19,686 nt of DNA from a virus. The stretch spans positions 1-19,686 of the IMG/VR virus record IMGVR_UViG_3300022486_000016. One strand, written 5' to 3'. Under the pieces are notes generated by a model. The model was not told the DNA's origin and ran no database searches. It worked only from the letters and a program-made list of their open reading frames with translations. Both the position numbers and the translations under genes were made by a program. This document shows, piece after piece, positions 3,279-19,686 of the stretch (position 1 is its first letter; the number at the start of each line of letters is the position of its first letter).

Positions 3279-4358
3279 TCATAGTATTTTAGATATGAGA
3301 GATAACATGTAATTTTTTGCCTCAGCGTTTTCATACCAAATGCAATTTTTTAAATAGCATTGTCTGAGTGTCCACGCGAGATCCGAGCTTCTGTCCATGT
3401 AAATAAGTCCGTTCTCAGATTCCGCTGGGTCTACGCTGTAAATGTCGCGGTGTTTGTCATAGCCTACTTTGACGTAAACAAGACCGTTACAACTGTAACA
3501 AGAGAGCGTGATGCCGTCTATGTACAGCGAATAAAGATAAGTCTTGTCACCCTTGAGCTTCCCGATATTTTTTCCTCGGTCGACTTGAAATTTATTATTT
3601 GCTACTGAGTCGTAAATCTTTGAATCCTTGATAAGATGGTAAATGTCGTCATCCGACGAGCCGTCGAAGGGTTGATTCGGTGGAAACTCAATCAGGATGC
3701 GTCGGTCTTTTAGATTGTAAAAGCGTCGGTCTGTGTTTTCGTAAAACTTGAAATAAGCGAAATATGGATTATTAATATTCGCAGCATTTGACAAGAGGTA
3801 GACGTGGCAGTTTTTACGCTGACGAAATACCGAAATGAGCAGATTTAGAAAAGCCTCTACTTCATTTTTTAAATAGCGCTTATTAGAGCTTGTGTCGATT
3901 AAAACTTCATCAAACATTATAAAGAAAACGTTATCATATTCTGAACCTTTGAGGTTTACCCACGTGCTTAAAGATTTTAAGTAAATGACTACGCGTCCGT
4001 TTAGCATAATTTTACCGCTCGTTATAATAAACTCGCCGTCTTCGTAGCCTTCAAGCGTTGACGTAAATGTTATCTTAGTCTGTGTTCGCGATACGTTCAC
4101 TTCTGCTTCTTCATATCCTGGAAAGATTTGTTCTAACATAATTCGCGGAAAAAAGCTTTCTTTGTCAATACCATCTAACTCTGTTTTATTTCTCCGCAAA
4201 TAGAGTGATTGTTTCCCGTTCTTCACGAACTGTTGTAACAGGTATTTTTTCATGGCGAAAGTCTTTCCGATGTCACGTCCACCAATAACAAAATTTAAGA
4301 ATTGATTATAAGAGAGCATTTTCTGTGGATTGTACCACTCTTTTTTATGTTGTTCCAT
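3279..4358 (-). CDS. DNA encapsidation ATPase (phi29 gp16-like)
   Basis: Walker A GGRDIGKT and Walker B FFIMFDEV. At 359 aa its size is close to phi29 gp16. AAGGAGG SD. Confidence 0.85.
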   Translation of the reverse strand: MEQHKKEWYNPQKMLSYNQFLNFVIGGRDIGKTFAMKKYLLQQFVKNGKQSLYLRRNKTELDGIDKESFFPRIMLEQIFPGYEEAEVNVSRTQTKITFTSTLEGYEDGEFIITSGKIMLNGRVVIYLKSLSTWVNLKGSEYDNVFFIMFDEVLIDTSSNKRYLKNEVEAFLNLLISVFRQRKNCHVYLLSNAANINNPYFAYFKFYENTDRRFYNLKDRRILIEFPPNQPFDGSSDDDIYHLIKDSKIYDSVANNKFQVDRGKNIGKLKGDKTYLYSLYIDGITLSCYSCNGLVYVKVGYDKHRDIYSVDPAESENGLIYMDRSSDLAWTLRQCYLKNCIWYENAEAKNYMLSLISKIL

Positions 4359-4374
4359 GCATGCTCATACCTCC

Positions 4375-7300: not shown

Positions 7301-7764
7301 GATCCTACGTTAAAACCTTGCGTGTTCGTGTGTCGTGCTCTGAAATTCTTGTCGTCGCTTGGCAAATATGGCAAATACTGAGCAATAGTTCCGCTGACTT
7401 GCGTATTTTTATTAAAGAGCATGGGTTGATAAGTGTTCCATATATCCAACTCGTAAATAATTTTAGTCGTATTCTCGTTAATGTAAGCGATGTCGTAAAC
7501 GAACGCGTAATACTCTTTACCAGCGTTTTTAAAAAACATGTAAGTCGCTGTCTCAAATTGTTCCTGACGTCCGCTTACGTAGATTTCACCCGTGCGTGAA
7601 ATAAACTGAAAATTATCAGATTCGTAAATCTTTTTAAGATGCGGTGAATCGGTATCAAAATATTTTTGCATCTCAGCGCGATTGTCAAAGTGAATGACGT
7701 TCGCGTAATCGCTACGAAATGGCGATTTTGAGTAAAGTTTAATTTTAGTTGTTTCTTTAACCAA
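4375..7764 (-). CDS. Tail knob protein (phi29 gp9-like N- and C-terminal parts) with an internal lysozyme-like + CHAP peptidoglycan hydrolase cassette, 1129 aa
   Basis: The N-terminus (SPFRSDYANV...YYAFVYDI...ELDIWNTYQ) resembles the phi29 gp9 N-terminus. Residues ~325-460 (LLGNAKQESS...GLGLWQWT...RWERAG) resemble the phage tail lysozyme family. Residues ~500-625 are CHAP-like (GNGQCYAL Cys, GAGHTGI His, EQNYG). Gly-rich linkers flank the cassette. TTG start at 7764, with AAAGGA 11 nt upstream. Confidence 0.8.
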   Translation of the reverse strand: MVKETTKIKLYSKSPFRSDYANVIHFDNRAEMQKYFDTDSPHLKKIYESDNFQFISRTGEIYVSGRQEQFETATYMFFKNAGKEYYAFVYDIAYINENTTKIIYELDIWNTYQPMLFNKNTQVSGTIAQYLPYLPSDDKNFRARHTNTQGFNVGSKATEEIYDVGANLVDWLVIVAKPEFKFKGEAGTPASDMSFSGTQKSLKYYFVPVEIAGKMTKQFELDGQTYPPKPIVTILLECFGITVGGKHISPTKDNTADAQHIATNNIVNMYYSRYLGIDYDYDGSVVKIKKADGDIFNVVGVGRQSSAAPSGGSGDLVTVGGPTGSEKEIAERIAKTIKANYPPATVNGIAALLGNAKQESSMDYTIDVAAGLGLWQWTSTRAQGLRNYAHSKGISEHTIEAQVGWLLNEPGESETAKAVLSGNDSAGNLSDVFVTRWERAGIPVADKRRAYAESFVPIVKAVINDASNNSNAGKNADNKTTSAPKPAEVTEKVIAKVKAMANKSVGNGQCYALSSYYCQCFREFGVDAPGLGAGVGNLYKQIGDTYNAYAIGSAYDWKSCGWGVKFNPSEEDFKNAAGCMINYKPNYGPTVTGGAGHTGICISYDGHSLHTVEQNYGNNGYTLDHVVTHVHADALSSICIPPDVLAGGKINPDVVGDASGGDGSGGANSAAYIVKIVEHPKAAPKFIEIDELKPKILKRLKAYIKDTLGERFVHMANQLLLISELIDVELYDYYGNTYAYQLELLNNLQTEDGKYYNKSAIMLLGSVGDQNYNFAGLVAYGHTHNIVDQNNKTFKIKAKADENIISKWDIMQYGIFDTTGKNLTILDDATATYIQGHAAQIKAQQASFNENASLQRQQADMNNRQTSFANDKNIYGANFAVDQSVFKRGKAGVMATVDVATNALDIFSPLKKDETYLGKFMSTASNTAKAGMNGYYNVQQSLMDVTNAKVNRSFAQDENELRSQSTALANLQAKTAIDQQIRAFNATMTDLQNQPDSIQQMGNDISFQTSNYQQGLFIRIRFPYPEQLKTVLTYMHLYGYIYQTESNDVLKYAYNRRAFNYIKLTSADVSGLEAPQSDLAMIKNILASGVRIWEAKYLDYTKPKPFDIYTPNPNRADDQAVLDSYRNFD

Positions 7765-7792
7765 GTTTTGAAAGTTCCTTTCTAGCTAACAT

Positions 7793-7827
7793 ATAAAAAT
7801 AGTGTTAGCTTTTTAACTAACACTATT
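7793..7827 (-). terminator. Candidate partial intrinsic terminator/attenuator inside the late operon
   Basis: An 11-bp perfect stem, AATAGTGTTAG (7798-7808) / CTAACACTATT (7817-7827), with an 8-nt loop. On the - strand RNA it is followed by UUUAUAU. The stem is AU-rich, so the call is marginal. Confidence 0.4.
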
Positions 7828-7869
7828 ATATCATACTTTGTACTATTGCGCTAGTACAAGTATCTTTTT

Positions 7870-8619
7870 TTAGTCGCCGATTTCGGTCTGTCCGACCCAC
7901 GTTCCGCCGTGGCGGATGCGGTGTTTTCCGCGTCCTTGAGCCTTTCTGTCAGCGTTGCTCATTGTGCTCACGTCGCTCCATGTTCCGCCTTTGCGGATTT
8001 TAAACCATCCGTTATGTTTTTGATGACTCTTGAAAGTGCCATTTTTGCGAGTCGCCCAAGGTCGAAACTCTGGCGGTGGAAAGTACGCGATAGCGTCAAA
8101 CCATAATTCGATTTTATTATCACCGCTTGGATCTGCGGCCAAGTCGTCAAAGCGTAGAAGTTTAATTCCTACGTGTTGCGTATGCTCGCGAGCAAATTCA
8201 CTTTTTTTAATAGTGAGGATAGGAACAGAACCGAACACCGTAGCGCCTCCGAGCTGTTGGTTATAGCTATAACCCGTACCTGACTGGTAGTGTAAGTCGA
8301 CCAGTGTTTGACCGTTCGCATTTACTAAGCTATCATGGACAGGGAAAGGAGTGCCACGGCGTAGGCTTGTGATAGTCAAGCCGTAACCGCTCACACCTTT
8401 TACTTTGATACGAATTTCGTCCGTCGTTTCTTCAATGTCATAGTCAAAACTTACTCGCGTGTCAATCGTTTCATTTTCTGGAGATCCGACCGTATAGGCG
8501 TTGTACATGTGAAAAATGGAAGTGTTGCCTTCGTAGCTCACGCCTCTATATGTACCCCCCTGAATGACAACAGGTTTAAGTTGAAAATCTACGCGTCCGC
8601 CGTTTTTAAGTTGTGCCAT
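7870..8619 (-). CDS. Virion structural protein, putative fibre/receptor-binding protein (249 aa)
   Basis: Sits in the structural block. GGAGGTG SD. The C-terminus has repeated basic motifs of the type K/R-I-R-K/H-G-G-T-W (FKIRKGGTW, HRIRHGGTW). The function is inferred from position only. Confidence 0.5.
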   Translation of the reverse strand: MAQLKNGGRVDFQLKPVVIQGGTYRGVSYEGNTSIFHMYNAYTVGSPENETIDTRVSFDYDIEETTDEIRIKVKGVSGYGLTITSLRRGTPFPVHDSLVNANGQTLVDLHYQSGTGYSYNQQLGGATVFGSVPILTIKKSEFAREHTQHVGIKLLRFDDLAADPSGDNKIELWFDAIAYFPPPEFRPWATRKNGTFKSHQKHNGWFKIRKGGTWSDVSTMSNADRKAQGRGKHRIRHGGTWVGQTEIGD

Positions 8620-8622
8620 ACA

Positions 8623-9327
8623 TTAAACACCTCCAGCCAAGTCGTCCTCTGTTGCTCCGTTATTTGTGCGGATAAAGTGCGCACCGTCTGTCGCTCCACC
8701 GAATACGTTAATATTACCTGTCGCAATATTGCGGTCTGGCTTAAGGTTACCATTTTCCCAAGCGCCTGAATTTTTGAGGTTGTCAATAATCTTATTGAGG
8801 TTGTTTTCAATCTCAGTAATACCGAGCTTATCTTTCAAATCTTTCAAAAATTTAGGGTCGTTGAGCAACTCTTTGAGATAGTCTTTAAACCATTTTTGCA
8901 TTTCAGGATCGTGCATAATTTCTTTGAGATAATCCTTGAAAAATTCACGCATGTCTGGATCTCGGAGAATATCTTTAAGATAATTTTTAAACCATTGCTT
9001 CAAGTCGCTATTAAGGACATCTTTGAGCAAGTCTGAGAAGATTTTGCGGAACTCTGTCGAGTGTGCAAAGCGTCGAATAAGTTCAGGAATAAGATATTCT
9101 AACAAATCAATTAGCGCATTTTTAAAGTCTTCAAACTCATTTTCCAACGCTGTAAAGTCGTCCAAGAGTTGCTTAAAGGCTCTTTGAAGCCACGCGATAA
9201 GCTCATAAATAGAGTTCGCGTTGTCAAAGCTCGTTGGGAGTTCTGGAATTAGTCCGAAGCGCTCAATCCAGTATTGACTATAACGACCGCGGTAGTTTTT
9301 GAAAAAGTCTTCGTTTTCGTTAAACAT
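8623..9327 (-). CDS. Putative fibre/appendage protein with four 17-aa helical repeats (234 aa from ATG 9327)
   Basis: The track start TTG 9333 is replaced by ATG 9327, which lies 7 nt after GAGGTG. The N-terminal NSIYELIAWLQRAF motif resembles N-termini of Gram-positive phage fibre/appendage proteins. Tandem repeats follow, then a Gly-rich C-terminus. Confidence 0.55.
   Translation of the reverse strand: MFNENEDFFKNYRGRYSQYWIERFGLIPELPTSFDNANSIYELIAWLQRAFKQLLDDFTALENEFEDFKNALIDLLEYLIPELIRRFAHSTEFRKIFSDLLKDVLNSDLKQWFKNYLKDILRDPDMREFFKDYLKEIMHDPEMQKWFKDYLKELLNDPKFLKDLKDKLGITEIENNLNKIIDNLKNSGAWENGNLKPDRNIATGNINVFGGATDGAHFIRTNNGATEDDLAGGV
8827..9030 (-). repeat. Four imperfect tandem 51-bp (17-aa) repeats inside the CDS
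   Basis: Protein units: LLKDVLNSDLKQWFKNY / LKDILRDPDMREFFKDY / LKEIMHDPEMQKWFKDY / LKELLNDPKFLKDLKDK. On the + strand, TTTGAGATAxTCxTTxAAA recurs about every 51 nt. Confidence 0.8.
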
Positions 9328-9344
9328 AATCAATCACCTCTTTT

Positions 9345-11111
9345 TTAGTAGATTGTTTTAAGAATAGGTGGACATTTTGTGCCAGGCTCAAGCAATTCGC
9401 TCGCTTTAATTGTTTCAACTTCCGCAGTGTCGACGTTGTACGTTTTAATATTAAAGTCGAGAAGCGCTTGAGCGTCCGATTTATTGCCGCTAAACGTAAC
9501 TGATGTACCTGACACGCTTACATGGACTGGAAGCCAATACCCACCCATGTCAATCAACAAACCGCCTGAGACAATTACACCAGCGTCAATGTCATCCTGT
9601 GTAAAGTTTGTACGTCCTTTAGCTTGTGAAAGTTGGAGAAGCGCTTTCGCAGGAGTGAGCGGTGGGAATTCAAGCCAGTCGCGAATTTGGATAAAATTGT
9701 TAGCGAAGTTTTTTTCGGCTGATGCGAAGCGGATGTCTGTCACAATGTTTGTAAGTACACGGTTTTCATCGTCATATTTAAGTGAGACGAACAATCCTGA
9801 TCCGCCGTTTAGTCCGCCGAGCTGGCTAGTTTTTAGACCGTGATCAAAATCGGTGAGTCGAGCGTCGTTGTAACCGGTTTCGTTAATGTTCTCTTGATCC
9901 CACGTTATCGTAACTGTTTCGCCTCCGACGACAAAATCTACAGATTCTAGACCTGTTTGTCGCGTGCGTGCTTGTAAAATTGCACGCTTAGATTCGTCGG
10001 TGACTTTGAGCGGTTCAGCGCTGTTTGTTGTATTAGCGTTCTTTAATTTCTCAGCGAGTGCATCAATCGCTTTTTTAAGCTCACCGTCAGCTGTTTTACT
10101 AGCTTCTCCGAGTTTTGTGACTGCGTCCGTCACGCTTGCAATATCTGAGATTTCTTTCGTTTTAGCGTCTTCGAGCTTTTTAGCTAAAGCGTCAGCTTTT
10201 GTTTTCGCTTCGTTTGCTTTGCCTTGTGCTTCAGCCGCGCGGTCTTGTGCGTCCTGAACAGCGACACCTAAAGCATCAAAGTCAGGAAGCGCTGGTTTTG
10301 CAACTTCAAGACGAATTTCTCCGACTTCTCGCGAGAAGTCGAGAGAGTCGATAGAGTTGTCATTTTGCTTGAGAGTAACAGTAAGAGTGACATTATCTGA
10401 CACCGACAAGCTGACAGCGTTCGAATTATCTAAGTCTGTATAGAGTTCGACGCGTTTGAGTCCTTCGACGCGTCCGTTATGTTTTTTCGCAATGTCGCGA
10501 CTTTCTTCGTTGACGTACAATTTCGCATCTTTTGGCAACTTCGACAAGATTTCTTTAATGTTGTCGATATCGGTTTTTAGCAACTTGTCAGCACCTTCAG
10601 ACGCTTCTTGCAATTTTGCAAGAGCGTCTTTCACGTCCGCAATTTGAGTAATAGCAGTAGTAGCCTTTTGGTCTGCAAGACCTGCTTTTTCTGCTGCTTT
10701 GTCAGCTTTATCTTTCGCTTCTTTTGCGTCATTCAAAGCTTTTGTCAAGTCCGCTTCAATTAATGTACCGTCAATTACCGCTTTTTCTTGCGTTTTGTTA
10801 ATGCTGAGATATTTGCCAGCAGTTTCGAGAGCTAGACCGCGATAGTCGTGCCCAAGGGCGACTGATTTTTTCGGATCATCCGTTCCTTCATCAGCTGTTG
10901 TAACGGTCGTAGTGACAAAAGGAGTCCCTGAGACTTCGTTAACTTTGTCTGGATCAGCTTTTACTTTTAATTTAAAGTCTCCATCACGCTCTGAAAAGTC
11001 AACGCTTGTAAGCGCATCTTTTCCGCTTACGCTAATGTCTTTAATTTTTTGATGTTGTTGGAATTGAATGGTCTTTGAAACTGGTAAAGGTCGTTTAGTT
11101 GATTTAGTCAT
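9345..11111 (-). CDS. Large fibre/appendage protein with a duplicated beta-segment + Ala/Lys/Asp coiled-coil module (588 aa)
   Basis: GAGGAAA SD. There are two similar modules: DFSERDGDFKLKVKA followed by KALNDAKEAKDKADKAAEKAG..., and DFSREVGEIRLEVAK followed by DAQDRAAEAQGKANEAKTKADALAKK.... A distinct C-terminal globular part follows. The receptor-binding role is inferred. Confidence 0.6.
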   Translation of the reverse strand: MTKSTKRPLPVSKTIQFQQHQKIKDISVSGKDALTSVDFSERDGDFKLKVKADPDKVNEVSGTPFVTTTVTTADEGTDDPKKSVALGHDYRGLALETAGKYLSINKTQEKAVIDGTLIEADLTKALNDAKEAKDKADKAAEKAGLADQKATTAITQIADVKDALAKLQEASEGADKLLKTDIDNIKEILSKLPKDAKLYVNEESRDIAKKHNGRVEGLKRVELYTDLDNSNAVSLSVSDNVTLTVTLKQNDNSIDSLDFSREVGEIRLEVAKPALPDFDALGVAVQDAQDRAAEAQGKANEAKTKADALAKKLEDAKTKEISDIASVTDAVTKLGEASKTADGELKKAIDALAEKLKNANTTNSAEPLKVTDESKRAILQARTRQTGLESVDFVVGGETVTITWDQENINETGYNDARLTDFDHGLKTSQLGGLNGGSGLFVSLKYDDENRVLTNIVTDIRFASAEKNFANNFIQIRDWLEFPPLTPAKALLQLSQAKGRTNFTQDDIDAGVIVSGGLLIDMGGYWLPVHVSVSGTSVTFSGNKSDAQALLDFNIKTYNVDTAEVETIKASELLEPGTKCPPILKTIY

Positions 11112-11409
11112 AATTTTTTTCCTCGTTTTCTATAAATGTAAAACTCATGGTTTTTGGATGCAATTCCGCTAGCTGTTTTAAATAAAGGACAGCTTGCAAA
11201 AGCATTTTTTTCGTTTGCTTGCTGTACGCTATTTCAGCGTAACTGTAACCGTCCGCCGTTTTTTTGTCGATGATCTTGTGAGTGAAAGTGTATGTGATAG
11301 CCTGAAAAGCCGTCGTCGCTCGGGCGCAATCTTCACGCCCCGTGGCGCTGTGCCCTTTTACTGTTAGGCGGAGGCTTGTTGCGGTCATTTCCGCATTTAT
11401 TGTAATCAT
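11104..11409 (-). CDS. Prp-like (ribosomal-processing cysteine protease family, former DUF464) small protease candidate, 101 aa
   Basis: MITI..., LRLTVKGHSATGREDCARATTA and C-terminal LLQAVLYLKQL line up by eye with S. aureus Prp (MITV..., DGHADHGEYGHDIVCAGASA, LILQTMLVSLQT). That includes the His/Cys dyad positions and the ~100-aa size. Confidence 0.5.
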   Translation of the reverse strand: MITINAEMTATSLRLTVKGHSATGREDCARATTAFQAITYTFTHKIIDKKTADGYSYAEIAYSKQTKKMLLQAVLYLKQLAELHPKTMSFTFIENEEKNYD

Positions 11410-12095
11410 AGTTTTTCGTGTCCTTCCCCTCCGACCAAAGAAATACGTTTCTCGCCGTCGTGGTTATTCGTCGCGGTGAGTTGGAACTTATCCCAATCTT
11501 TCAGGTAGTGCACCCATCCAGGCTTTTTGAGTCCTCGGTTGTTGTTGTCATACCATACAATACCGATTTCTTCCCAGCTTTCCGCATCGTTCCAAGGTTT
11601 CTCATAAGTTGCTTTAAATTTAAAATTATTAGACGTTAAGACTCCGTTATCCCAATGCGTAAGCTCGTTGATAATAGGTATACGACTAAAATACTCATTA
11701 TCGTCAATGACTCGCCCGAAGCCTTTAAGTTTAGACTTAGATAAAAGCTTATCTTTGCTATAATAAACGCCTAAAACTTTAAAGCGGATGAAACATAAGC
11801 AGTTAAGCTCGTCGCCTGATGTCGTTACGGCTGTAATCGGTTTGTTTACAACTTTCGAGCGTGTTGATGTAATGCCCCAACGTTCAGCGCTTGATGCGTC
11901 TGCGTAGTAGTAAAGCACCGCTCGCGCTTTGACGTAGAGATTTTTTAAGCGTTTACCATAGCGTGGATTAGTTACTTTAAAATAGTACAGCTCGTCAGGC
12001 TCAGGTGTGAAATCCTGAGGTACTTTAATAAGTAGCTGAGCTAGATATTTATCGTAGCTGACTAAGTTTTCGTTAGCTATTGTTAATTCTCGCAT
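11406..12095 (-). CDS. Structural-module protein, unknown function (229 aa)
   Basis: AAAGGA SD. ATGA-type overlap with the downstream gene. Located between the lower collar and the protease. I recognise no motif. Confidence 0.6.
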   Translation of the reverse strand: MRELTIANENLVSYDKYLAQLLIKVPQDFTPEPDELYYFKVTNPRYGKRLKNLYVKARAVLYYYADASSAERWGITSTRSKVVNKPITAVTTSGDELNCLCFIRFKVLGVYYSKDKLLSKSKLKGFGRVIDDNEYFSRIPIINELTHWDNGVLTSNNFKFKATYEKPWNDAESWEEIGIVWYDNNNRGLKKPGWVHYLKDWDKFQLTATNNHDGEKRISLVGGEGHEKL

Positions 12096-12112
12096 AGTTT
12101 GTCCTTTCTAGG

Positions 12113-12772
12113 TCACCACACTTGTAAAAAGAGCGGTTCCAAAATGTTGAAGATTTCAAAAGTGAGGTCTTCCATTTGCGCGAGTTGGTTGTAACGCTGA
12201 GCGAGTTGACCGCCTGCCCATCCGTGCGTATAGCTGTGGTGGTCTTCCTTGCCTTTTGCGTTACCCTCACCGAGCGCATTTGCGTAATCTATTGCGCCGT
12301 ACTTTTGGTCGTGGTCGTTGTCATAAGTTATGCTTAAGTGTTCTTGTGGTGTCGTGTTTGAAATCGATAAAGTGTGACTGTCATTTTTAGAGCTTCCGTC
12401 GTTATACATGCTGGTATCTTGATTCATTTGATCAAGTGACATGTTTTTAAGCGTGTCACGGACTTTAAACAAATTGAGACAGTCCGTGTTTAATTCTTGC
12501 TCTAAAAATACCTGGAAGCGTGCGAACGTCTCGAAACCGATTTCGCGATTATAGAAACGCTGACAAAAGAGTTTTTTAAAGTCGTCATCGACGTACTTAT
12601 TTAAGTGCATGTCTTTAAATAGCTCATTAAATGTCTGGTCAATAATGACATTATAGTGTAAAAAGTCGCCGTTTTCGTCAACTGCCAAACCGTCAAGATT
12701 TCCTGTAATCGGATTACGATACCGAGATTTTAAAAATTGCTCAATTGTTACTGTTGTGTTGTTTTGTGTCAT
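12113..12772 (-). CDS. Lower collar protein (phi29 gp11-like)
   Basis: FYNREIGFETFARF resembles the conserved lower-collar motif as I remember it. It sits directly after the connector gene, as in phi29. GGAGG SD. Confidence 0.65.
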   Translation of the reverse strand: MTQNNTTVTIEQFLKSRYRNPITGNLDGLAVDENGDFLHYNVIIDQTFNELFKDMHLNKYVDDDFKKLFCQRFYNREIGFETFARFQVFLEQELNTDCLNLFKVRDTLKNMSLDQMNQDTSMYNDGSSKNDSHTLSISNTTPQEHLSITYDNDHDQKYGAIDYANALGEGNAKGKEDHHSYTHGWAGGQLAQRYNQLAQMEDLTFEIFNILEPLFLQVW

Positions 12773-13806
12773 GGCTGTAAACCTCCGTCCGCGTTGTCGT
12801 CGAGATTTTCGGTGTTTAAGTCTTTCTCAACATCCGCAAAGTTAAAGCGTTGCACCCATTCAGCAGGCTCTACGTCAATATTTAAGCCGTAAGCTTCATT
12901 AATACGTTTCACCGCGTTTCGACGAGATTTCCAACCTACCTCAATATTAGCTGAGATAATTCCTGCGTTAGAAATTGCTTCAGCAGTAACTAAGCGCTCA
13001 GCTTTGTCCACTGGATTATTATTAATACCTATAAATGTTAAGAGCTGATTGATCACTCGGTTTTTTTCGTCGTGTAACTTATCCAAGAGATACGGAGCCT
13101 CAGTCCTAAAGACTTTAATTCTGTCGTCTAACTGTTGGAAGTCTGCTGTCCCTGCGGCGTTCTTTTGCGTGTTAGCGTAAACGACAGGCTCAAAGCTCTG
13201 GATCTTGTTAAAAATATTTTTTAAACTTAATACAGATTTTTCATCAGCTAAGACAAAGAACGGAGTGACTTGAGCGTTGCGGTTTAATTGAATAGTCATT
13301 TCAATATCTGCGAGCTTTTCGCAATAGAGGTGGATATAGTCCAGATATGGCTCAAATAAGTTATTATTCGGAATAACGATACAAGGTTTGTCCGTCCGTG
13401 TCTCATCATGCATTTTTTGGAGTAAGTCAAAATCCCTTTTACTGTACGCGATTTGCATTTTAGGGAATCGCATCTGCTGAGCCGCGTTAACAGGTAAGTA
13501 CGTCGTCGGATAGTCGTAAATGTTTAACTCTTGCCCGCGTGTGCCTCCTTGGACGACATATCCGAGCTGTTCGTCTTCGAAAAATGCAACGTGTCCATTT
13601 TCCAAAAGCTTACGCTCTATAAAGAGCTCATCAAGGTCATTCGGTAAATTGTACCAAGAGAAGTAGTTTACGACAATGTCATAAAAGTAATTAAAGTAAA
13701 AGTTATACCATGCTGTACGATTACGGTCGACGGTTGTTTTACTGTGTTCAATGCGTCCTAAAGTTTTTGTATATTCCTTGAGACTGTGATAATTTACAGT
13801 ATTCAA
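12769..13806 (-). CDS. Head-tail connector / portal (upper collar, phi29 gp10-like)
   Basis: By-eye matches to phi29 gp10: RNRTAWYNFYFNYF versus RNRWFIHYLNYL; LNRNAQVTPFFV versus VNQNAQKTPVLI; FRTEAPYLLDKLHDEKN versus FKTDAPYVVDKLNAQKN; INEAYGLNIDV versus INELYGLNVKV. TTG start, 7 nt after GAGGA. Confidence 0.85.
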   Translation of the reverse strand: MNTVNYHSLKEYTKTLGRIEHSKTTVDRNRTAWYNFYFNYFYDIVVNYFSWYNLPNDLDELFIERKLLENGHVAFFEDEQLGYVVQGGTRGQELNIYDYPTTYLPVNAAQQMRFPKMQIAYSKRDFDLLQKMHDETRTDKPCIVIPNNNLFEPYLDYIHLYCEKLADIEMTIQLNRNAQVTPFFVLADEKSVLSLKNIFNKIQSFEPVVYANTQKNAAGTADFQQLDDRIKVFRTEAPYLLDKLHDEKNRVINQLLTFIGINNNPVDKAERLVTAEAISNAGIISANIEVGWKSRRNAVKRINEAYGLNIDVEPAEWVQRFNFADVEKDLNTENLDDNADGGLQP

Positions 13807-13830
13807 ATACTTTTCCTCGCTTTCTTTGTT

Positions 13831-13864
13831 TTAATAAAAGCCCAGACCCATTGTGGGCAGGGCT
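13831..13864 (-). terminator. Intrinsic terminator (probably partial) just downstream of the major capsid gene
   Basis: The - strand RNA reads AGCCCUGCCCA-caa-UGGGUCUGGGCU, a GC-rich stem with one small bulge, followed by UUUAUU. It starts 16 nt after the capsid stop codon. Confidence 0.6.
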
Positions 13865-13879
13865 AGTAGAGGAATACTA

Positions 13880-14977
13880 TTAGTCTTCCACGTAGAACAT
13901 GTGGATGTTTTCGAAAAGTGAAAGGCTAGTAAGGTAATGGTGATGGTAGAAGTAGTTATAAGACATAGTCTTTGGATTGCGGATGCTTTCCATGTGTACT
14001 AATTTGTCCTTTAAGATAATCGAGTTCTTAGATACTAAGAAAGCAACTGGACGGCGTCCGTTATTTTGTCCAGCTCCTGTGAACTTGTCAAAGAAGTCGA
14101 CAACAATTTGACGAGCTTGGACTGACGCTTTATCCATGTTGAAAGCGTTAGCAAGCATGAGGTCGATATCAGTTGAGTATTCAGCGTCGATAATCAAATA
14201 TTGATCTTCGAGTGGCGTCGCATTAGGTACACCTACTGGATTATTTGAATGAGCTTTATCACGCGAAGGGATTGTAAACTGTTTAGATTTCGCGATGATG
14301 TCCTTCACCATTTCCTCAATATAGTTATTATGAGTCGTGTCGACTTTAGTACCTGCTACCGTGATTTGGTGAGCTGTACCAGCGTTATCTGTGTAAGTAA
14401 CCTCAGCGAGTGAGTCGTTAAGCACTTGTTTAACTGCTGCATATTCATCGAGCGTGTCTGAGCTAATCAAAGATGTGAACATTTTGTCAATAAATTCATC
14501 AAATGCCATATCTGAGGTAAAGGCTTTTTGAACCCAGGCACGTTCGAAAGTACGATCGTAGCGGTATTCGTTGTTCAACTTGTGATAAAAGACTTCGATA
14601 TCTGTATCAGCGAAAGCGAAAGGATGTCCGTTGTCTTTTGCGTTAAAGTTGTTACGTTCCGCAGGTGCGACGTAAATTTCTTCCAACGTATCACCGAACT
14701 CGAAAATTTCAGATTTAAAAATAGCGAGTGGGTTTTCATAAGTCAAAGCCTTCACGACAACTGATCCAATACGGTTAATCAACTGTTCAAAAAATTCATT
14801 TTCATGAACTTGAAATTGTTGTACAGGGATATTACTGTGGTTGATAGCGCCTTTAAGTACAGGAATGTCAGCCCGATAAGCATTTGAAGCTTTTTCACGG
14901 ATGGCGTTTAAGAGGTCGATGTTGCTTACTGTTTGTCCCGTTTCATGAGACATAAAGCGTGTAATTTTATTGCTCAT
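13880..14977 (-). CDS. Major capsid protein (phi29 gp8-like)
   Basis: By-eye matches to the phi29 gp8 N-terminal half: DLLNAIRE versus DIVNAIRN; RIGSVVVKA versus RIGLVVIRQ; NPLAIFK versus NPLKKFK; TLEEIY versus TIEEIY. AAGGAG SD. Confidence 0.85.
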   Translation of the reverse strand: MSNKITRFMSHETGQTVSNIDLLNAIREKASNAYRADIPVLKGAINHSNIPVQQFQVHENEFFEQLINRIGSVVVKALTYENPLAIFKSEIFEFGDTLEEIYVAPAERNNFNAKDNGHPFAFADTDIEVFYHKLNNEYRYDRTFERAWVQKAFTSDMAFDEFIDKMFTSLISSDTLDEYAAVKQVLNDSLAEVTYTDNAGTAHQITVAGTKVDTTHNNYIEEMVKDIIAKSKQFTIPSRDKAHSNNPVGVPNATPLEDQYLIIDAEYSTDIDLMLANAFNMDKASVQARQIVVDFFDKFTGAGQNNGRRPVAFLVSKNSIILKDKLVHMESIRNPKTMSYNYFYHHHYLTSLSLFENIHMFYVED

Positions 14978-15210
14978 TATTTTTCTCCTTCTTCTACAGG
15001 AATTTGATTATTTTCGTTAACTTCAGTCGTTTCGAGTTCGTCAGCGCGTTCAACGCGTTCAGGATAATTTTGTTCACGGTTTGCGATGTTATCCGCAGGC
15101 GTTTCGAGTGGTTGTTCGACGTCGGTAGGTGCGTTAGTTTCTACGGCACGGTCAGCGTAAATAGCTTTAAGCTCGTCGCGTCCGTACCAGTCAATTTTTG
15201 GAAGATTCAT
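14977..15210 (-). CDS. Small acidic head-morphogenesis protein (77 aa), function unknown
   Basis: AAAGGA SD. Its stop overlaps the capsid start (ATAATG). Very acidic and of low complexity. Positioned between the scaffold candidate and the capsid gene. Confidence 0.6.
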   Translation of the reverse strand: MNLPKIDWYGRDELKAIYADRAVETNAPTDVEQPLETPADNIANREQNYPERVERADELETTEVNENNQIPVEEGEK

Positions 15211-15233
15211 TTTTTTGGTGTCCTTTCTGTTAA

Positions 15234-15536
15234 TTAAAACAAGTCGTTAATTTGTGCAATTTTTGAGACTGCTTCTTTAGCTTCCTCAGCTGCCTCGTTT
15301 TGTTTTCCGATTTGACGGTAAAGCGTGTTATTAGATGCCATAAGACCTTGGTTTTTCTTGTTAAGGTTTGCGACATCTTCGTTCAACGTTGCCACGATTT
15401 CGTCAATTGTACTTACAAAATCTTTAAGCGTAATAAGATCCGCGAGAATTGATTCGATTTCGTCGTCGTTCCCAACACGTTCAGGGAGAGAGTCGAGAAG
15501 CTCAAGAGCGTCTTTAGTTTCAAAAGCTGTATCCAT
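15234..15536 (-). CDS. Scaffolding protein candidate (100 aa, acidic, helical)
   Basis: The track ORF starts at 15584, inside the promoter. I trimmed it to ATG 15536 (MDTAFETKD...), which follows AAAGGAGG. It is the first late gene, and its size and composition resemble phi29 gp7 (98 aa). Confidence 0.7.
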   Translation of the reverse strand: MDTAFETKDALELLDSLPERVGNDDEIESILADLITLKDFVSTIDEIVATLNEDVANLNKKNQGLMASNNTLYRQIGKQNEAAEEAKEAVSKIAQINDLF

Positions 15537-15569
15537 TGTGGAGAAGCCTCCTTTACATTTATTTGTACT

Positions 15570-15601
15570 ATTATAATAACACAAGACAACAAATATGTCA
15601 A
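15570..15601 (-). promoter_or_regulatory. Late-operon promoter (P-late)
   Basis: On the - strand: TTGACA (15601-15596), a 17-nt spacer ending TGt, then TATTAT (15578-15573). This overlaps TATAAT (15575-15570). The SD and scaffold start follow. About 45 nt are paralogous to the promoter at 15966..15997. Confidence 0.75.
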
Positions 15602-15606
15602 GTGGC

Positions 15607-15635
15607 TTGACACTTTTAATGGTTTGTGTTAAGAT
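15607..15635 (+). promoter_or_regulatory. Plus-strand promoter divergent from P-late
   Basis: TTGACA (15607-15612), 17-nt spacer with TGt, TAAGAT (15630-15635). Its -35 and the P-late -35 together form the palindrome TGTCAAG-tgg-CTTGACA (15596-15612). Confidence 0.65.
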
Positions 15636-15641
15636 AATAAT

Positions 15642-15788
15642 ACAAGAAGCACCGATTGTGATTGACGTATAGCGTCTGGACGATTACGCATTGAGTTGCG
15701 CCTGACGCTTTCGCATCTTAATCACATGCTCTGTCAGTCGCTCTCGATTCGTTTCTTCAAACAGTTTCCTTACGGAAGCTGTTTTTTT
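15642..15788 (+). ncRNA. Candidate small RNA A (~147 nt)
   Basis: Bounded by the + promoter and a + terminator. Nested helices: AAGAAGC (15644-50) / GUUUCUU (15751-57); UGUGAUU (15657-63) / AAUCACA (15720-26); AGCGUC (15671-76) / GACGCU (15704-09); CGCA (15687-90) / UGCG (15697-15700). Two G-U pairs exist only in the + sense. No SD-led ORF is present. Confidence 0.55.
15759..15788 (+). terminator. Intrinsic terminator of candidate RNA A
   Basis: ACAGTTTCC-ttac-GGAAGCTGT, 9 bp including one U-G wobble that would be an A-C mismatch on the other strand, followed by T7 (15782-15788). Confidence 0.7.
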
Positions 15789-15794
15789 ATATAT

Positions 15795-15824
15795 AAAAAA
15801 TCCCCTTAGACATCTCGTCTAAGG
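15795..15824 (-). terminator. Intrinsic terminator of candidate RNA B
   Basis: On the - strand: CCUUAGAC-gagau-GUCUAAGG (15824-15804), then GGAUUUUUUAUAU. It converges 3'-to-3' with the RNA A terminator across the spacer T7-ATATAT-A6. Confidence 0.6.
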
Positions 15825-15960
15825 AGTAGTAGTGGTAGAGCTAAATTTGATAGATAAATAAGAAAGAAAGGAGATTTTATGATTTAATAAGAAAGGTGGT
15901 ACTTCATATAGTAAGACTCGTGTAATTTTGTGAGATAGACGCTCTACCTTGCCTATCTCT
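15795..15960 (-). ncRNA. Candidate small RNA B (~165 nt), pRNA-like size
   Basis: Bounded by the late-type promoter at 15966..15997 and the terminator at 15795..15824. It has a 5' hairpin GAGAUAG/CUAUCUC (15959-53 / 15938-32). A 5'-proximal GGUAGAGC (15948-41) pairs with a 3'-proximal GCUCUACC (15841-34). The AU-rich core holds two anti-SD-like tracts (CCACCUUUCUU, UCUCCUUUCUUUCU). There is no credible ORF. Confidence 0.5.
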
Positions 15961-15965
15961 GTACT

Positions 15966-15997
15966 ATTATAATAACACACTAAGGCAAATACGTCAA
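15966..15997 (-). promoter_or_regulatory. Late-type promoter paralog (drives candidate RNA B)
   Basis: On the - strand: TTGACG (15997-15992), 17 nt ending TGt, TATTAT/TATAAT (15974-15966). The string CTTGAC(G/A)TATTTG...TGTGTTATTATAATAGTACA is shared with P-late. Confidence 0.7.
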
Positions 15998-16009
15998 GCG
16001 TCAGGATAC

Positions 16010-16037
16010 AAAAAAAGAGCGTTTTTTATAAACGCCC
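16010..16037 (-). terminator. Intrinsic terminator T2 (second copy of a duplicated terminator module)
   Basis: On the - strand: GGGCGUU-uauaaaa-AACGCUC followed by U7. The G-U pair exists only in the - sense (A-C mismatch in the + sense). It shares the 17-nt identity TACAAAAAAAGAGCGTT with 16089-16105. Confidence 0.65.
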
Positions 16038-16091
16038 TGACGATTCCTGAGTAGTGCCAGTAACTCTAACGCGTACCACTAAAAACAGTAC

Positions 16092-16120
16092 AAAAAAAGA
16101 GCGTTGCACTACTAACGCCC
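16092..16120 (-). terminator. Intrinsic terminator T1 (ends the early operon and candidate RNA C)
   Basis: On the - strand: GGGCGUU-aguagugc-AACGCUC followed by U7. It is the first terminator after the polymerase stop codon. Confidence 0.7.
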
Positions 16121-16163
16121 CGATTTTAGCGATACTCTGCGAGGCAATACCACTTAACCTCAC
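16092..16163 (-). ncRNA. Candidate small RNA C (~70 nt; ~155 nt if it reads through to T2 at 16010)
   Basis: It lies between a perfect-consensus promoter (16170..16198) and T1. There is no ORF (ATG ATG TGA only). Confidence 0.45.
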
Positions 16164-16169
16164 ATCATT

Positions 16170-16198
16170 ATTATAGCAAAACTTTAAAAAATTGTCAA
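16170..16198 (-). promoter_or_regulatory. Consensus promoter overlapping the polymerase stop codon
   Basis: On the - strand: TTGACA (16198-16193, containing the polymerase TGA stop), 17-nt spacer ending TGc, TATAAT (16175-16170). Confidence 0.7.
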
Positions 16199-17811
16199 TA
16201 GTCAAAATCATCAATGGCTTTAATTTCAAAAGTTGTCGTGACAATGGACATACCGCCACGGCGACCAATCATTTTTTTGAGACCGTCGAACTTTTGACCA
16301 ACTTTGAAATTTTCAAAGGTTACTTGTTTCTTTACAGCGTCCGTCATGCCTGCTACCTTGACGTGGAGTGAGCCGTCAGTTTTTTGGATAGCGTAGCATT
16401 TTTGACGGATATATTTAAAGCGAGTTCCTGTAACTTCGAGATCAAATGCACCGAGTTTTTTTGCGTCGACCTCAAATTTTACATTTTTAGTCGTTAAGTG
16501 TACCGCGTCGGTATCACTGTAAACAAAGTTATCACGATGCATTAGAGCGATTGATACAATATAAGTACGAGCAATAGACGCGATTGCGGCAGTCATTGGC
16601 GCATAAATCGCTTTTACAAATGTATCGCGTCCGTTTTCATAGACCACACGTCCTGTCGTTTCATCGATGCGAGGATCTTTGCTTGTTAAACGAGTTTTAG
16701 CGCCAAACTTACCGTAAAGACTCACAAGCATAGCTTTCGCGTGTTGACGGCTAAAAGGAGTCGATGCCTCTTGTTTTTCAGCGTAGTATTTATTTACATA
16801 CATATCAAACAAACCGCGAGCACCTGCAAATGTTACCTGTTTAAAAAATACAAAATCCACAACGTCGTAACTTTTCAAGAAAAGCTGATATTCAGTCCAG
16901 GACATACAAAACGTAGAGCGTCCTTTAGTTTCATAAATCAGATGTCCTTCTTGACACATGCTATTCTCTGTTTTCGCAAACGGGAAAAATCCGTCCTTTA
17001 ATTCAAATTCACATTCAAAGCTAACAAACGAAACTTGAGACTCTAAAGGAGCTTTAGGCTTTGTTGTATTGATTTCGACAGGCTTGCCGTAAGGGAGAAC
17101 AGCGGATTTTTGGATAAAAGCGTACATACTATTAATATCAAAAACGTTGATTTCACCTTTGATGTCTTTGTTTACATATTTAGGAACGATGTAATTCCAA
17201 CCCGATTTATCAACCTCACGACAAAGTTTATCGACATCGTCTGGCAACTGTGGAAAGTAGCTGTCAAAGGCGTAGCCTTGCTGTTTCATAATTTGTTTAA
17301 ACTCATACAAAGCCTGAGAAGCATTAGTAAAACGAACGTATTTACCAGCTACGAAATATTCTTCAACCGCTTTACAAAAGACATCGATATCGCTACCCGA
17401 AAGCTTAAAGGTCTCACGCATGGCGTCAACACCGCCATCAAAAACTTTTTTAAAGTCTTTAATCTCAAAGCGGTAATCATTCACATAGAAACGCAACTCG
17501 TAAAACTCTAAGCCAATCTGTGTATCATACTTAATACCGTTCTCGATAAAATATGCGACAAATGTATTAGTAACTTCAATTAAGCTAGGAACAAAAAGCG
17601 TATGTACTGTGTTTGTATCATTAAGCCCTTGACCTACCCAAGCTTTTAAAAATGCACCAATGCTTTCGAACGTTGTAGCAGAAGTAGTAAGACAACGTTT
17701 AAACGTTATGCTATTAAGTGTAACGCTTTGAACGTCTTCACTGACCATGTCCGCCACTGCCGCATAGTACGTGCGGTCAGTGCGGTTCTTTTTATTATCT
17801 GTGGTATTCAT
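16195..17811 (-). CDS. Protein-primed family-B DNA polymerase (phi29 gp2-like), 538 aa
   Basis: Motif A VFDINSMYAF, motif B AKAMLVSLYGKFGAK, motif C FVYSDTDAVHL, KxY motif RQKCYAIQ. The C-terminal AGMTDAVKKQVTFENFKVG is almost identical to phi29 AGMTDKIKKEVTFENFKVG. See the findings for the missing exonuclease residues. Confidence 0.95.
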   Translation of the reverse strand: MNTTDNKKNRTDRTYYAAVADMVSEDVQSVTLNSITFKRCLTTSATTFESIGAFLKAWVGQGLNDTNTVHTLFVPSLIEVTNTFVAYFIENGIKYDTQIGLEFYELRFYVNDYRFEIKDFKKVFDGGVDAMRETFKLSGSDIDVFCKAVEEYFVAGKYVRFTNASQALYEFKQIMKQQGYAFDSYFPQLPDDVDKLCREVDKSGWNYIVPKYVNKDIKGEINVFDINSMYAFIQKSAVLPYGKPVEINTTKPKAPLESQVSFVSFECEFELKDGFFPFAKTENSMCQEGHLIYETKGRSTFCMSWTEYQLFLKSYDVVDFVFFKQVTFAGARGLFDMYVNKYYAEKQEASTPFSRQHAKAMLVSLYGKFGAKTRLTSKDPRIDETTGRVVYENGRDTFVKAIYAPMTAAIASIARTYIVSIALMHRDNFVYSDTDAVHLTTKNVKFEVDAKKLGAFDLEVTGTRFKYIRQKCYAIQKTDGSLHVKVAGMTDAVKKQVTFENFKVGQKFDGLKKMIGRRGGMSIVTTTFEIKAIDDFDY

Positions 17812-17836
17812 AATAAAGTATCGCTTTCTTTATTTG

Positions 17837-18577
17837 TTATTTTTTACGTTTTGCTGAACGACTGCGAGCGTTCTTTGATGCTCTACTGATATCATCAAAA
17901 GATCCAGAAAGCTCACTCGCTTTAGTGCTGTCGCTCATTTCTATTTTTTTACCGTCGGAATCATAAAACCATTCACGGAGATTTTTAATGTTCCATTCCA
18001 TTCGCGTTGATGGATCTCGGATACTGTCTACAAACTTTGTAGGACTGAGTAAACGAACGCTACGAATCGCGGCACGTGCTTCTTTTAATTGTCCAGGTGT
18101 AGCGCCCGCCTTTTTCATAACTTTATAGCGAGATTCAAGAGCGCTGATATACTGGCTCTTTTTGTCTTTTGCGTAGCTTGTTTTCATCTTACGGACTTGC
18201 GTTTCATTCATGCGACTAAACTTGCTTTTTTGTTCACTTGCCCAATTGCGCCCCATTGCCACGCCGTCCACTCGTCCACCGCCTTCGATAGTTGTTTCCA
18301 TACGTCGAAAGAGTTGGAGTTTTTTCGTCGTCGACTCACGGTAAATACCGCCCGTCTCTGGATTGACCGAGAGATCTTTGGACGAGTAAGCCTTAGTCTT
18401 TAGTTTACTTGCTACGCGTCGTACTGTCTTTGTATCCATTTCTTTACTAGAGAGAGTATTAGTACCAAGGACAGCTTTAATCTCTTCGTCTTTTGCGCCC
18501 ATGCTTGAAAGTTGATTGACACGGCGTGTGATATACCCACGGTCACTGCTGAGGCTTGTTTTTTTCTTAGCTGTCAT
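17837..18577 (-). CDS. Terminal protein candidate (246 aa, basic)
   Basis: Lies immediately upstream of the polymerase, as gene 3 does in phi29. Its size is similar to known terminal proteins (phi29 266 aa). Lys/Arg/Ser-rich. AAAGGA SD. Called from synteny; I recognise no sequence motif. Confidence 0.6.
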   Translation of the reverse strand: MTAKKKTSLSSDRGYITRRVNQLSSMGAKDEEIKAVLGTNTLSSKEMDTKTVRRVASKLKTKAYSSKDLSVNPETGGIYRESTTKKLQLFRRMETTIEGGGRVDGVAMGRNWASEQKSKFSRMNETQVRKMKTSYAKDKKSQYISALESRYKVMKKAGATPGQLKEARAAIRSVRLLSPTKFVDSIRDPSTRMEWNIKNLREWFYDSDGKKIEMSDSTKASELSGSFDDISRASKNARSRSAKRKK

Positions 18578-18866
18578 AATCTAGTCCTTTCATAAACAAA
18601 TCTAATGAGATATACGATGTCAATTTCTTGTACGCGATATCCGTAACTTTAAATCCGTCGTATCCGTTTTCGTCGCAATACTCAGCATAACGACGATTAA
18701 TTTCAGATTGTGTACGCTTGAGCGGTAGTGTCATATTATATTCAGTCGTGGTGATGTCGCCATCTGTGCTTACGTTGTAAACGTAGCCTTTCACAAATGT
18801 AACCGCTCGACGTACACTTACTGTACGCTCTGTATCGTCCATATATTTATAATAACCTTTACGCAT
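18567..18866 (-). CDS. Early protein, unknown function (99 aa); SSB/DNA-binding role is possible from position only
   Basis: First gene after the internal early promoter. AAGGA SD. Overlaps the start of the terminal-protein candidate by 11 nt. No motifs recognised. Confidence 0.6.
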   Translation of the reverse strand: MRKGYYKYMDDTERTVSVRRAVTFVKGYVYNVSTDGDITTTEYNMTLPLKRTQSEINRRYAEYCDENGYDGFKVTDIAYKKLTSYISLDLFMKGLDYDS

Positions 18867-18901
18867 AATGTTTTAATCCTTTTTTGTTTTTCTTTACTAT
18901 A

Positions 18902-18930
18902 AGTATACACCAAATAGGGTGATTTGTCAA
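18902..18930 (-). promoter_or_regulatory. Internal early promoter
   Basis: On the - strand: TTGACA (18930-18925), 17 nt, TATACT (18907-18902). The downstream TATACTTATAGTAAAGAA is identical to that of the proximal ITR promoter. Confidence 0.7.
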
Positions 18931-18969
18931 GTGTAATACCCTACTTTTTTTAAAAATGTTTATATGTTT

Positions 18970-19368
18970 TTATTTTAAATGATTGAAGAAGTACTCAGCG
19001 TCCATGTTGTAATCTTTTGGCTCAATCGCTGATTTTTTACGTTTCGTCTTTGCATACGCGTCAACTATATCCGTATAAGCTACGTCTTTATCTTGAGATA
19101 GTAGTAGCTCAAGGCAAGCATCCACGCGCTTAATCTTCAAATCCTTTGGCCCTGCCTTACGAAACCACGACTCTACTTTTTTAAGTTGCTGTGGTGCTCG
19201 GTACGGATCCATTTTCATATTCCAACAATATGATTTAATCAGTAAGCCCGCTGATTTAGGTAAGGCGCTGTCAGGCATATAATAATCTAAAAACATATTT
19301 TTCTGATTCATCAGGTCACGCACGTAACCCTGATAGGCTTTCAATAATTCTAAGCTTAGTGTTTCCAT
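18970..19368 (-). CDS. Early protein, unknown function (132 aa, basic/helical)
   Basis: The track ORF starts at 19419, inside the ITR and promoter. I trimmed it to ATG 19368 (METLSLELL...), 10 nt after AAAGGAG (19379-19385). That SD straddles the ITR boundary. Confidence 0.65.
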   Translation of the reverse strand: METLSLELLKAYQGYVRDLMNQKNMFLDYYMPDSALPKSAGLLIKSYCWNMKMDPYRAPQQLKKVESWFRKAGPKDLKIKRVDACLELLLSQDKDVAYTDIVDAYAKTKRKKSAIEPKDYNMDAEYFFNHLK

Positions 19369-19402
19369 CTGGAGATTTTCTCCTTTCATATTCTTTACTA
19401 TA

Positions 19403-19431
19403 AGTATAGCACACCTCAATCATTTTGTCAA
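19403..19431 (-). promoter_or_regulatory. Early promoter in ITR-R (proximal), mirror of 256..284
   Basis: Exact ITR copy: TTGACA (19431-19426), 17 nt, TATACT (19408-19403) on the - strand. Confidence 0.75.
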
Positions 19432-19488
19432 ACGTTTTATCTTAGTCATTTCAAATAATTAAAGTAGCTATCCCTTATTTCTAATATA

Positions 19489-19517
19489 AGTATAACACCG
19501 TTTAGCTATATTGTCAA
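19489..19517 (-). promoter_or_regulatory. Early promoter in ITR-R (distal), mirror of 170..198
   Basis: Exact ITR copy: TTGACA (19517-19512), 17 nt, TATACT (19494-19489) on the - strand. Confidence 0.75.
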
Positions 19518-19686
19518 GCGTAAGACCATCGTTTATTTATGCGCCATCATATGCGCGACCATGTAAGCGCCTAAGCATAGACATCAAAATTTTTAATGAG
19601 TCGATTTTAAGACACGGTATAATTTTAAAAAATTGATATACGATTTCAGGACTATCGAGGGGAACCGATTTCCGCTTCTACAGCCC

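Follow-up and report, generated by a model that had tools for sequence, protein, structure and literature searches.

A small RNA gene, here called RNA1, lies on the minus strand of the viral genome analysed, directly behind the DNA polymerase gene. It is identified as a real RNA gene by a conserved promoter that is the best in the genome, by low sequence diversity, by a compensatory change in its first hairpin (H1), by the lack of a conserved open reading frame, and by the emptiness of the surrounding gap in relatives. Our reading of its function, held with moderate confidence and built on sequence comparison, is that RNA1 is an independently transcribed, 3'UTR-type sRNA that would repress translation of the polymerase, and that the second of two tandem terminators (T2) behind it would be a fail-safe. 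If this is true, a protein-primed phage limits its own DNA polymerase by means of an sRNA encoded directly behind the gene.

Genome context and relatives

The window, that is, the whole 19,686-nt stretch of DNA that was analysed, is a linear genome in its entirety, bounded by inverted terminal repeats of 305 bp (1-305 and 19382-19686) that match perfectly. Each repeat contains two inward-pointing near-consensus promoters (11/12 positions, with TG). Nearly all genes are located on the minus strand, and their order matches that of Streptococcus phage Cp-1: early genes, terminal protein, polymerase, scaffold, major head protein, connector, tail genes, packaging ATPase, holin, and lysin. Counterparts of the major head protein in ~70 Cp-1-like viral contigs share 67-73% identity with it, and the connector and ATPase are 64% and 52% identical to the respective Cp-1 proteins. 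Identity of the polymerase to any polymerase outside the clade is ~33%; the search list drops from ~90% straight to 36% or less, and no polymerase between these two values was found among 5.8 billion proteins. The genome is a mosaic of structural and packaging genes (1544-15584) that are 52-73% identical to those of Cp-1-like phages and a polymerase side (16195-19419) at ~33%, and from these comparisons the replication module and the RNA1/RNA2 cluster look to have been swapped relative to Cp-1. Between the polymerase and scaffold genes, Cp-1-like phages carry two genes (orf6 and orf7); the same position in the clade of the window is a 610-nt gap in which gene callers, applied to the relatives as well, called no genes. 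The RNA1 unit occupies the polymerase end of this gap.

The clade sample consisted of 13 distinct versions of the region and one partial version, 88-94% identical to the window, which were obtained from viral and metagenome collections. A scan for more divergent relatives, which took in genome collections as well, recovered 13-14 distinct clade sequences in all; no isolate genome carrying the phage was found in the genome collections scanned. The gap region had no blastn match among 50,697 phage records, and a tRNA/tmRNA scan found none.

Several other features of the genome were recorded. The endolysin combines CHAP and GH25 domains without choline-binding repeats. A bidirectional terminator hairpin with A/T tracts on both sides (1494-1520) separates the convergent lysin gene from three plus-strand genes. 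Three copies of a 32-nt repeat at 51-nt spacing (8863-8996) lie within a 236-aa ORF (8623-9333), which suggests a 17-residue protein repeat.

Promoter, structure, and termination of RNA1

The elements of the RNA1 unit are as follows (minus-strand features are described in their own 5' to 3' direction).

16170..16198, minus strand: RNA1 promoter, with the -35 box TTGACA at 16198-16193, a 17-nt spacer with TG at 16178-16177, and the -10 box TATAAT at 16175-16170
16091..16165, minus strand: RNA1 short form, ~73 nt, comprising hairpin H1, a single-stranded linker, the T1 hairpin, and a U tract, its ends placed from consensus motifs
16138..16164, minus strand: hairpin H1, with an 8-bp stem (16164-16157 / 16145-16138) and the invariant 11-nt loop UAAGUGGUAUU (16156-16146)
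16091..16121, minus strand: terminator T1, with a hairpin at 16121-16098 (GGGGCGUU, 8-nt loop AGUAGUGC at 16113-16106, AACGCUCU) and U7 at 16097-16091
16060..16069, minus strand: conserved island 1, GUUAGAGUUA, diversity 0.031, of which AGAGU pairs with GCUCU of the T1 3' arm in the alternative helix described below
16047..16057, minus strand: conserved island 2, GCACUACUCAG, whose first 8 nt (16057-16050) complement the T1 loop
16009..16038, minus strand: terminator T2 (back-up), with a hairpin at 16038-16016 (stem AGGGCGUUU/AAACGCUCU, 5-nt loop) and U7 at 16015-16009

A preliminary description of this DNA had named TTGACA-17(TG)-TATAAT as the best promoter match in the genome and had stated that it drives only non-coding sequence. 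Both statements held: the promoter is the sole 12/12 match in the window, and the frames downstream of it differ in length and phase among relatives, with single-base indels at several places and no reading frame of the RNA1 unit conserved across them. The polymerase stop codon TGA (16197-16195) falls within the -35 box. The promoter is present in 13/13 clade sequences, with an invariant -35 box, conserved spacing, and a -10 box of either TATAAT or TATACT, and in these 13 sequences it overlaps the 3' end of the upstream coding sequence, as in type I 3'UTR-derived sRNAs. Because the 4 nt after the -10 box have a near-neutral diversity of 0.53, the transcript start was placed at ~16165-16163.

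The fold of the short form has an energy of -22 kcal/mol (z = -2.2). In the H1 stem, one compensatory change from G-C to A-U occurs (in 2 sequences), two positions alternate between U-A and U-G, and 100% of the cells are paired. An Rfam scan of the whole window (E <= 1) gave no family match, and the scan of Cp-1 gave nothing relevant. A CRISPR-repeat or tracrRNA mimic, prompted by TTTTTGTACT and GTTAGAG strings, was dropped because neither a CRISPR-DR nor a tracrRNA match was found in Rfam.

T1 and T2 are intrinsic terminators in tandem, with 8 and 9 pairs and hairpin energies of -9.0 and -9.8 kcal/mol, respectively, and each is followed by U7. They had been described as two terminators with the same stem that lie 82 nt apart and have a 17-nt block in common, which was confirmed: AACGCTCTTTTTTTGTA occurs exactly twice, at 16105-16089 and 16023-16007, and two copies were found in 0/200 shuffles. 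The further proposal of a tandem module duplication stands for the terminator arms and U tract (7-nt 5' arm and 17-nt 3' block) but not for the loops and flanks, which are unrelated. In one relative (L007), T2 is improved by a change from G-U to A-U. The position of T1 agrees with the proposal that it ends the early operon, since it is the first same-strand terminator after the polymerase gene and early transcripts would be expected to use it.

Selection on the unit

Diversity at 4-fold degenerate sites of the polymerase gene (0.41) was used as the neutral yardstick, and the value for polymerase codon positions 1+2 was 0.052. Diversity was 0.029 in the RNA1 body and 0.000 over the 31 nt of T1 with its U tract, so the constraint on these parts exceeds that on the protein positions. 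From T1 to T2, the spacer consists in order of GUACUGUUUUUAG (0.039), a drifting patch (0.30), island 1, two variable bases, island 2 (0.014), and a second drifting patch (0.57), followed by T2 itself (0.056). The 11-nt island 2 is flanked by near-neutral patches (0.38-0.57). The RNA1 unit is constrained more than the polymerase protein positions, and sequence beyond T1 is also under selection. The promoter, both terminators, and the 8-nt loop with its complement are retained in 12 related metagenomic phages.

Predicted pairing with the polymerase translation start

The genome was scanned with three conserved single-stranded parts of RNA1, from which a match of the linker to the polymerase leader emerged. 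The two seeds of RNA1 and their predicted target are given below.

16146..16153, minus strand: seed 1, GUGGUAUU, located in the H1 loop and perfectly complementary to polymerase mRNA +4..+11 (AAUACCAC), invariant in 13 sequences
16128..16138, minus strand: seed 2, AGAGUAUCGCU, located in the linker, which forms 11 bp (one of them G-U) with polymerase mRNA -14..-4 (AGCGAUACUUU), is left unpaired when the short form folds, and is invariant
17801..17825, minus strand: predicted target, the polymerase translation-initiation region, consisting of AGCGAUACUUU (17825-17815), AUU, AUG (17811-17809), and AAUACCAC (17808-17801)

With RNAduplex, the seeds form a collinear antiparallel duplex of 8 bp and 11 bp around the polymerase AUG (-26.1 kcal/mol), in which the two helices are separated by 6 nt on the mRNA and by the 8-nt H1 3' arm on the sRNA. 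When the two accessible segments were compared with the whole genome on both strands, the polymerase start was the best site apart from the RNA1 template strand (-26.0, against a background mean of -8.9 and sd of 2.9); a plus-strand site at 6756 scored -24.0. The runner-up among 21 gene starts reached -14.9. When the two segments were shuffled 300 times, the best of the 21 starts averaged -15.5 (sd 2.2, minimum -23.0) and none (0/300) reached -26.

Both sites on the polymerase mRNA are invariant in 12 relatives, including the synonymous positions of codons 2-4, and indels and substitutions start directly outside them; three relatives have an AAA insertion between the AUG and AAUACCAC. The pairing partners are all invariant in the 13 sequences, which are 88-94% identical, and hence the duplex shows no covariation. 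Translation needs alone could also account for the constancy of the polymerase start. Formation of 8 bp within an 11-nt loop would require distortion or partial opening of H1. No canonical Shine-Dalgarno sequence was found in the polymerase leader (17812-17836), which has GAAAG 12 nt upstream; the start is 25 nt past the terminal-protein stop, and 16 nt of the leader, GAAAGCGAUACUUUAU, are invariant across the clade.

In the proposed mechanism, transcription would start at ~16165-16163 and mostly stop at T1, yielding a two-hairpin RNA of ~73 nt, and early-operon transcripts running through the polymerase gene would stop at T1 too, carrying the RNA1 sequence as their 3'UTR. T2 would act as a fail-safe that keeps early and RNA1 transcription off the downstream units. 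The H1 loop and the linker would pair on both sides of the polymerase AUG, covering the ribosome-binding window, and this pairing is assumed to lower polymerase translation. Acting in trans from its strong promoter and in cis as a 3'UTR, the RNA could feed back negatively on the replication enzyme or limit it in time. A put-like antiterminator was also considered and was dropped because the early-operon terminator would be defeated as well. The polymerase model leaves the conservation of the T1 loop and of the two spacer islands unexplained.

RNA2 and other possible partners

A second conserved RNA is encoded in the gap on the same strand.

15795-15963, minus strand: RNA2, ~168 nt, conserved, with its promoter at 15997-15969 and its terminator at 15826-15802

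RNA2 has a 5' hairpin and a terminator stem with 4 compensatory pairs. Two pyrimidine-rich motifs in it, CAU-N5-CUCCUUUC and, in most relatives, CAU-N7-CCACCUUUC, are reverse-complementary to idealised ribosome-binding sites. No long match to these motifs was found at the phage gene starts, and RNA2 may therefore be directed at host mRNAs.

An alternative reading, which we consider unlikely, gives RNA1 a regulatory or decoy function directed mainly at another partner: host mRNAs, a protein, or RNA2, in which AGUACCAC and CACUACU match the H1 and T1 loops. Such a role is supported by the conservation, structure, and anti-ribosome-binding-site motifs of RNA2, by the invariant T1 loop, left unexplained by the polymerase model, and by the position of the genome's three copies of CACTACT or its complement, which are confined to 290 nt of the RNA cluster. 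Against RNA2 as the partner, the whole-molecule duplex energies of RNA1 with RNA2 and with RNA3, a third RNA described below, are no better than those of shuffles, the order of the two RNA2 sites does not allow a collinear duplex, the CACUACU site of RNA2 varies in 3 relatives while the loop is constant, and RNA2 is outside the top 15 bipartite sites. A search for genomic partners of the spacer islands outside RNA1 gave none that was convincing; its best hit, at 18432 within the terminal-protein gene, is probably due to chance.

The promoters in the gap were also compared with one another. Those of the late operon (15548-15613) and RNA2 (15944-16009) form a 66-nt duplication with 73% identity and an identical -10 region. 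The late and RNA3 promoters are arranged back-to-back, and their two TTGACA boxes form the palindrome GTCAAGTGGCTTGAC (15596-15612). The conserved motif GUACUGUUUUU after T1 complements AAAGACAGUAC in the terminal-protein coding sequence (18422-18432, minus strand) over 11 bp with one G-U, which is probably a chance match.

Possible alternative folding beyond T1

The preliminary description had pointed out that the 8-nt loop of T1 has a perfect complement 48 nt downstream, had cautioned that such a match is not very improbable, and had suggested a pseudoknot. The match is correct in all coordinates: the 8-mer GCACTACT / GCACUACU has just two genomic copies, at 16057-16050 (minus strand) and as the complement of the T1 loop at 16106-16113 (plus strand). 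Among ~520 hairpin-like sites on both strands, T1 alone has a full 8-nt loop complement within 150 nt, and full-loop complements of 6-7 nt are common (~4% of sites). The caution was well placed, since by our arithmetic ~0.5 cases are expected genome-wide, and the 8-mer match alone is not significant. Conservation raises the pair above chance, with the loop invariant in 13 clade sequences and its partner within a low-diversity island. Seven of the pairs are invariant in the clade and one changes from G-C to G-U (C to U, L007), which is weak support; the partners are frozen in the 13 sequences and show no covariation.

The 8-mer duplex alone has an energy of -10.8 kcal/mol. In the RNAalifold consensus, the T1 loop and 3' arm (AGUAGUGC-AAC-GCUCU) are paired with the spacer islands (AGAGU-UACNG-GCACUACU) in a nested helix of 13 bp, which has its internal loop exactly at the variable spacer bases and in which the AGAGU pairing corresponds to columns 68-73 with 105-109. 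In the window, this fold and the T1 fold are isoenergetic (-45.6 kcal/mol each), and the probability of the alternative helix is above 0.8 in 9/13 relatives. The suggested pseudoknot was not upheld: RNAalifold draws none, and the pair nests in cis within the 13-bp helix. Since such a helix is available, neither a pseudoknot nor an intermolecular ring is needed, and the 8-mer pair is best read, from the modelled folds, as a component of the 13-bp alternative helix, which would form solely in transcripts that pass T1, displacing the T1 hairpin. This helix accounts for the conservation of both spacer islands while the patches between them drift, whereas a loop-only pseudoknot or ring model leaves island 1 unexplained. 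A second possible partner of the linker seed in the modelled long form is UUUUUAGUGGUAC, just past T1, and self-masking of this seed is therefore possible.

A more elaborate reading, which we regard as quite unlikely, can be assembled from these folds. RNA1 would be a two-isoform riboregulator, with a 73-nt form that exposes the seeds and the T1 loop and a 156-nt form that refolds; terminator efficiency would set the level of the polymerase repressor, and RNA1, RNA2, and RNA3 would make up a hub replacing the two Cp-1 protein genes in the 610-nt gap. The 156-nt form would alternate between the 13-bp alternative helix and a helix that masks the linker seed with AGUGGUAC, a look-alike of the polymerase site.

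Punctuation and operator readings

It is improbable, in our judgement, that the unit is transcriptional punctuation alone. On this reading, T1 and T2 are a tandem fail-safe for the early operon, the promoter is there incidentally or as an insulator, and chance produced the complementarities. Both hairpins are canonical terminators, and chance alone would supply the half a loop-complement 8-mer per genome calculated above. Termination, however, requires neither an invariant H1 loop and linker nor a compensatory change in H1 nor a conserved 12/12 promoter, and the complementarity to the polymerase start was matched by none of the 300 shuffles.

Very little probability is given to the inverted 8+11-nt match being a pair of DNA operators for a phage regulator rather than an RNA-RNA interaction. 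The DNA has the same complementarity, with both copies invariant, but the half-sites are spaced by 6 nt at the polymerase start and by 8 nt in RNA1 (9 against 8 in the three relatives with the AAA insertion), a shift that an internal loop in RNA tolerates better than a protein operator would. One half-site, moreover, lies exactly in a hairpin loop with a covarying stem, which is an RNA-level feature.

RNA3 and the packaging RNA

The preliminary description had also put forward the RNA1 unit as a candidate packaging RNA (pRNA) that might assemble into a ring. A third RNA in the gap bears on this proposal.

15640-15790, plus strand: RNA3, with its promoter at 15607-15635 and its terminator at 15759-15784

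RNA3 lies ~300 nt beyond RNA1 in the 610-nt gap. It folds (z = -4.8) with its ends paired in a long 5'/3' helix; two hairpins branch from a three-way junction, and a terminator domain follows on the 3' side. RNA3 is conserved together with the morphogenesis module, and its model matches Cp-1 at 4648-4808 (complement; L015) and ~40 Cp-1-like contigs, in every case just upstream of the scaffold gene and divergent from it. Double (compensatory) changes were found in 43/52 pairs of the alignment, and the bulge of one hairpin covaries with the loop of the other (GAUUA:UAAUC, GGUUA:UAACC, and GGUAA:UUACC), a covariation that is the hallmark of pRNA loop-loop pairing. RNA3 had no Rfam match, and the Cp-1 records carry no RNA annotation at 4648-4808. 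According to PMC6266182, a pRNA of Cp-1 was described in the 1996 Cp-1 genome paper. On present comparisons, the pRNA label would fit RNA3, whose family reaches Cp-1, and not the RNA1 unit. The assignment bears on the long-standing question of whether packaging RNAs occur outside the Bacillus phi29 group.

The phi29 pRNA gene has its own promoter, is located at the end of the early operon, and shares a terminator. RNA1 mirrors this layout in its early-operon-end position, its own promoter, and its common terminator, and the perfect 8-bp complementarity between two conserved partners, stable as a duplex, would allow 156-nt read-through RNA1 to multimerise through the T1 loop and the downstream 8-mer. 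This is nevertheless the least probable of the readings weighed, and the proposal was not supported. No match to the Rfam Phage_pRNA covariance model was obtained in the window (E <= 1); H1 sequesters the 5' end and a terminator hairpin the 3' end, without a 5'/3' helix A or a junction in any fold; the 8-mer partner lies outside any conserved loop and can pair with the T1 loop in cis; and a strong terminator interrupts the molecule. RNA1 is absent from phages with which the motor proteins are shared, as neither blastn nor an RNA1 covariance model (noise, E > 0.3) found it in Cp-1 and 54 Cp-1-like loci despite the common connector and ATPase, and the pRNA hallmarks are already present in RNA3.

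Comparison with known systems

The phi29-family prohead RNA (Rfam Phage_pRNA) has been reviewed (PMC5066667, PMC11476376). Like it, RNA1 is small and non-coding, is driven by a strong promoter of its own, lies at the early-operon end by the polymerase gene, and contains a loop with a complement in the same molecule. Unlike it, RNA1 has no match to the model, no helix A, three-way junction, or in-loop partner, and is not co-inherited with the connector and ATPase. RNA3 fits the phi29 pRNA architecture far better than RNA1 does.

With tandem operon-end terminators, the unit has in common two GC-rich hairpins, each followed by U7 and placed 82 nt apart at the early/late boundary. It differs from them in that the arms of T1 and T2 are identical and the spacer contains a selected complement to the T1 loop and 3' arm.

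Pairing of a 3'UTR with the 5'UTR of the same mRNA is known, for example, in Staphylococcus aureus icaR. Similarly, early transcripts that stop at T1 would have a 3'UTR containing the seeds, and this 3'UTR could pair back onto the polymerase start. Unlike icaR, the RNA1 sequence is also a separate RNA, and the polymerase cistron is internal to a polycistronic phage mRNA. We know of no description of RNA-level control of replication proteins for phi29- or Cp-1-like phages.

The c4 antisense RNA of phages P1 and P7 is ~75 nt long and uses two segments directed at the ribosome-binding-site region of a gene in the same unit, acting in trans on translation. RNA1 resembles it as a small phage RNA with two short segments complementary to the region around the start of a gene in the same unit. 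It differs in having no Rfam C4 match, in having its own promoter, and in lying downstream of its target, whereas c4 arises by processing of a precursor that lies upstream of the target gene.

Type I 3'UTR-derived bacterial sRNAs, such as DapZ and MicL, are a known class. As in this class, the RNA1 promoter lies over the 3' end of the upstream gene, T1 would be common to RNA1 and the parental mRNA, and a conserved seed is directed at a translation-initiation region. In contrast to the members of this class, RNA1 is phage-encoded and has no Rfam or sequence kinship with any described sRNA, its predicted target is the parental gene itself, its seed is bipartite (loop and linker), and it is followed by a second terminator with identical arms and by an alternative helix.
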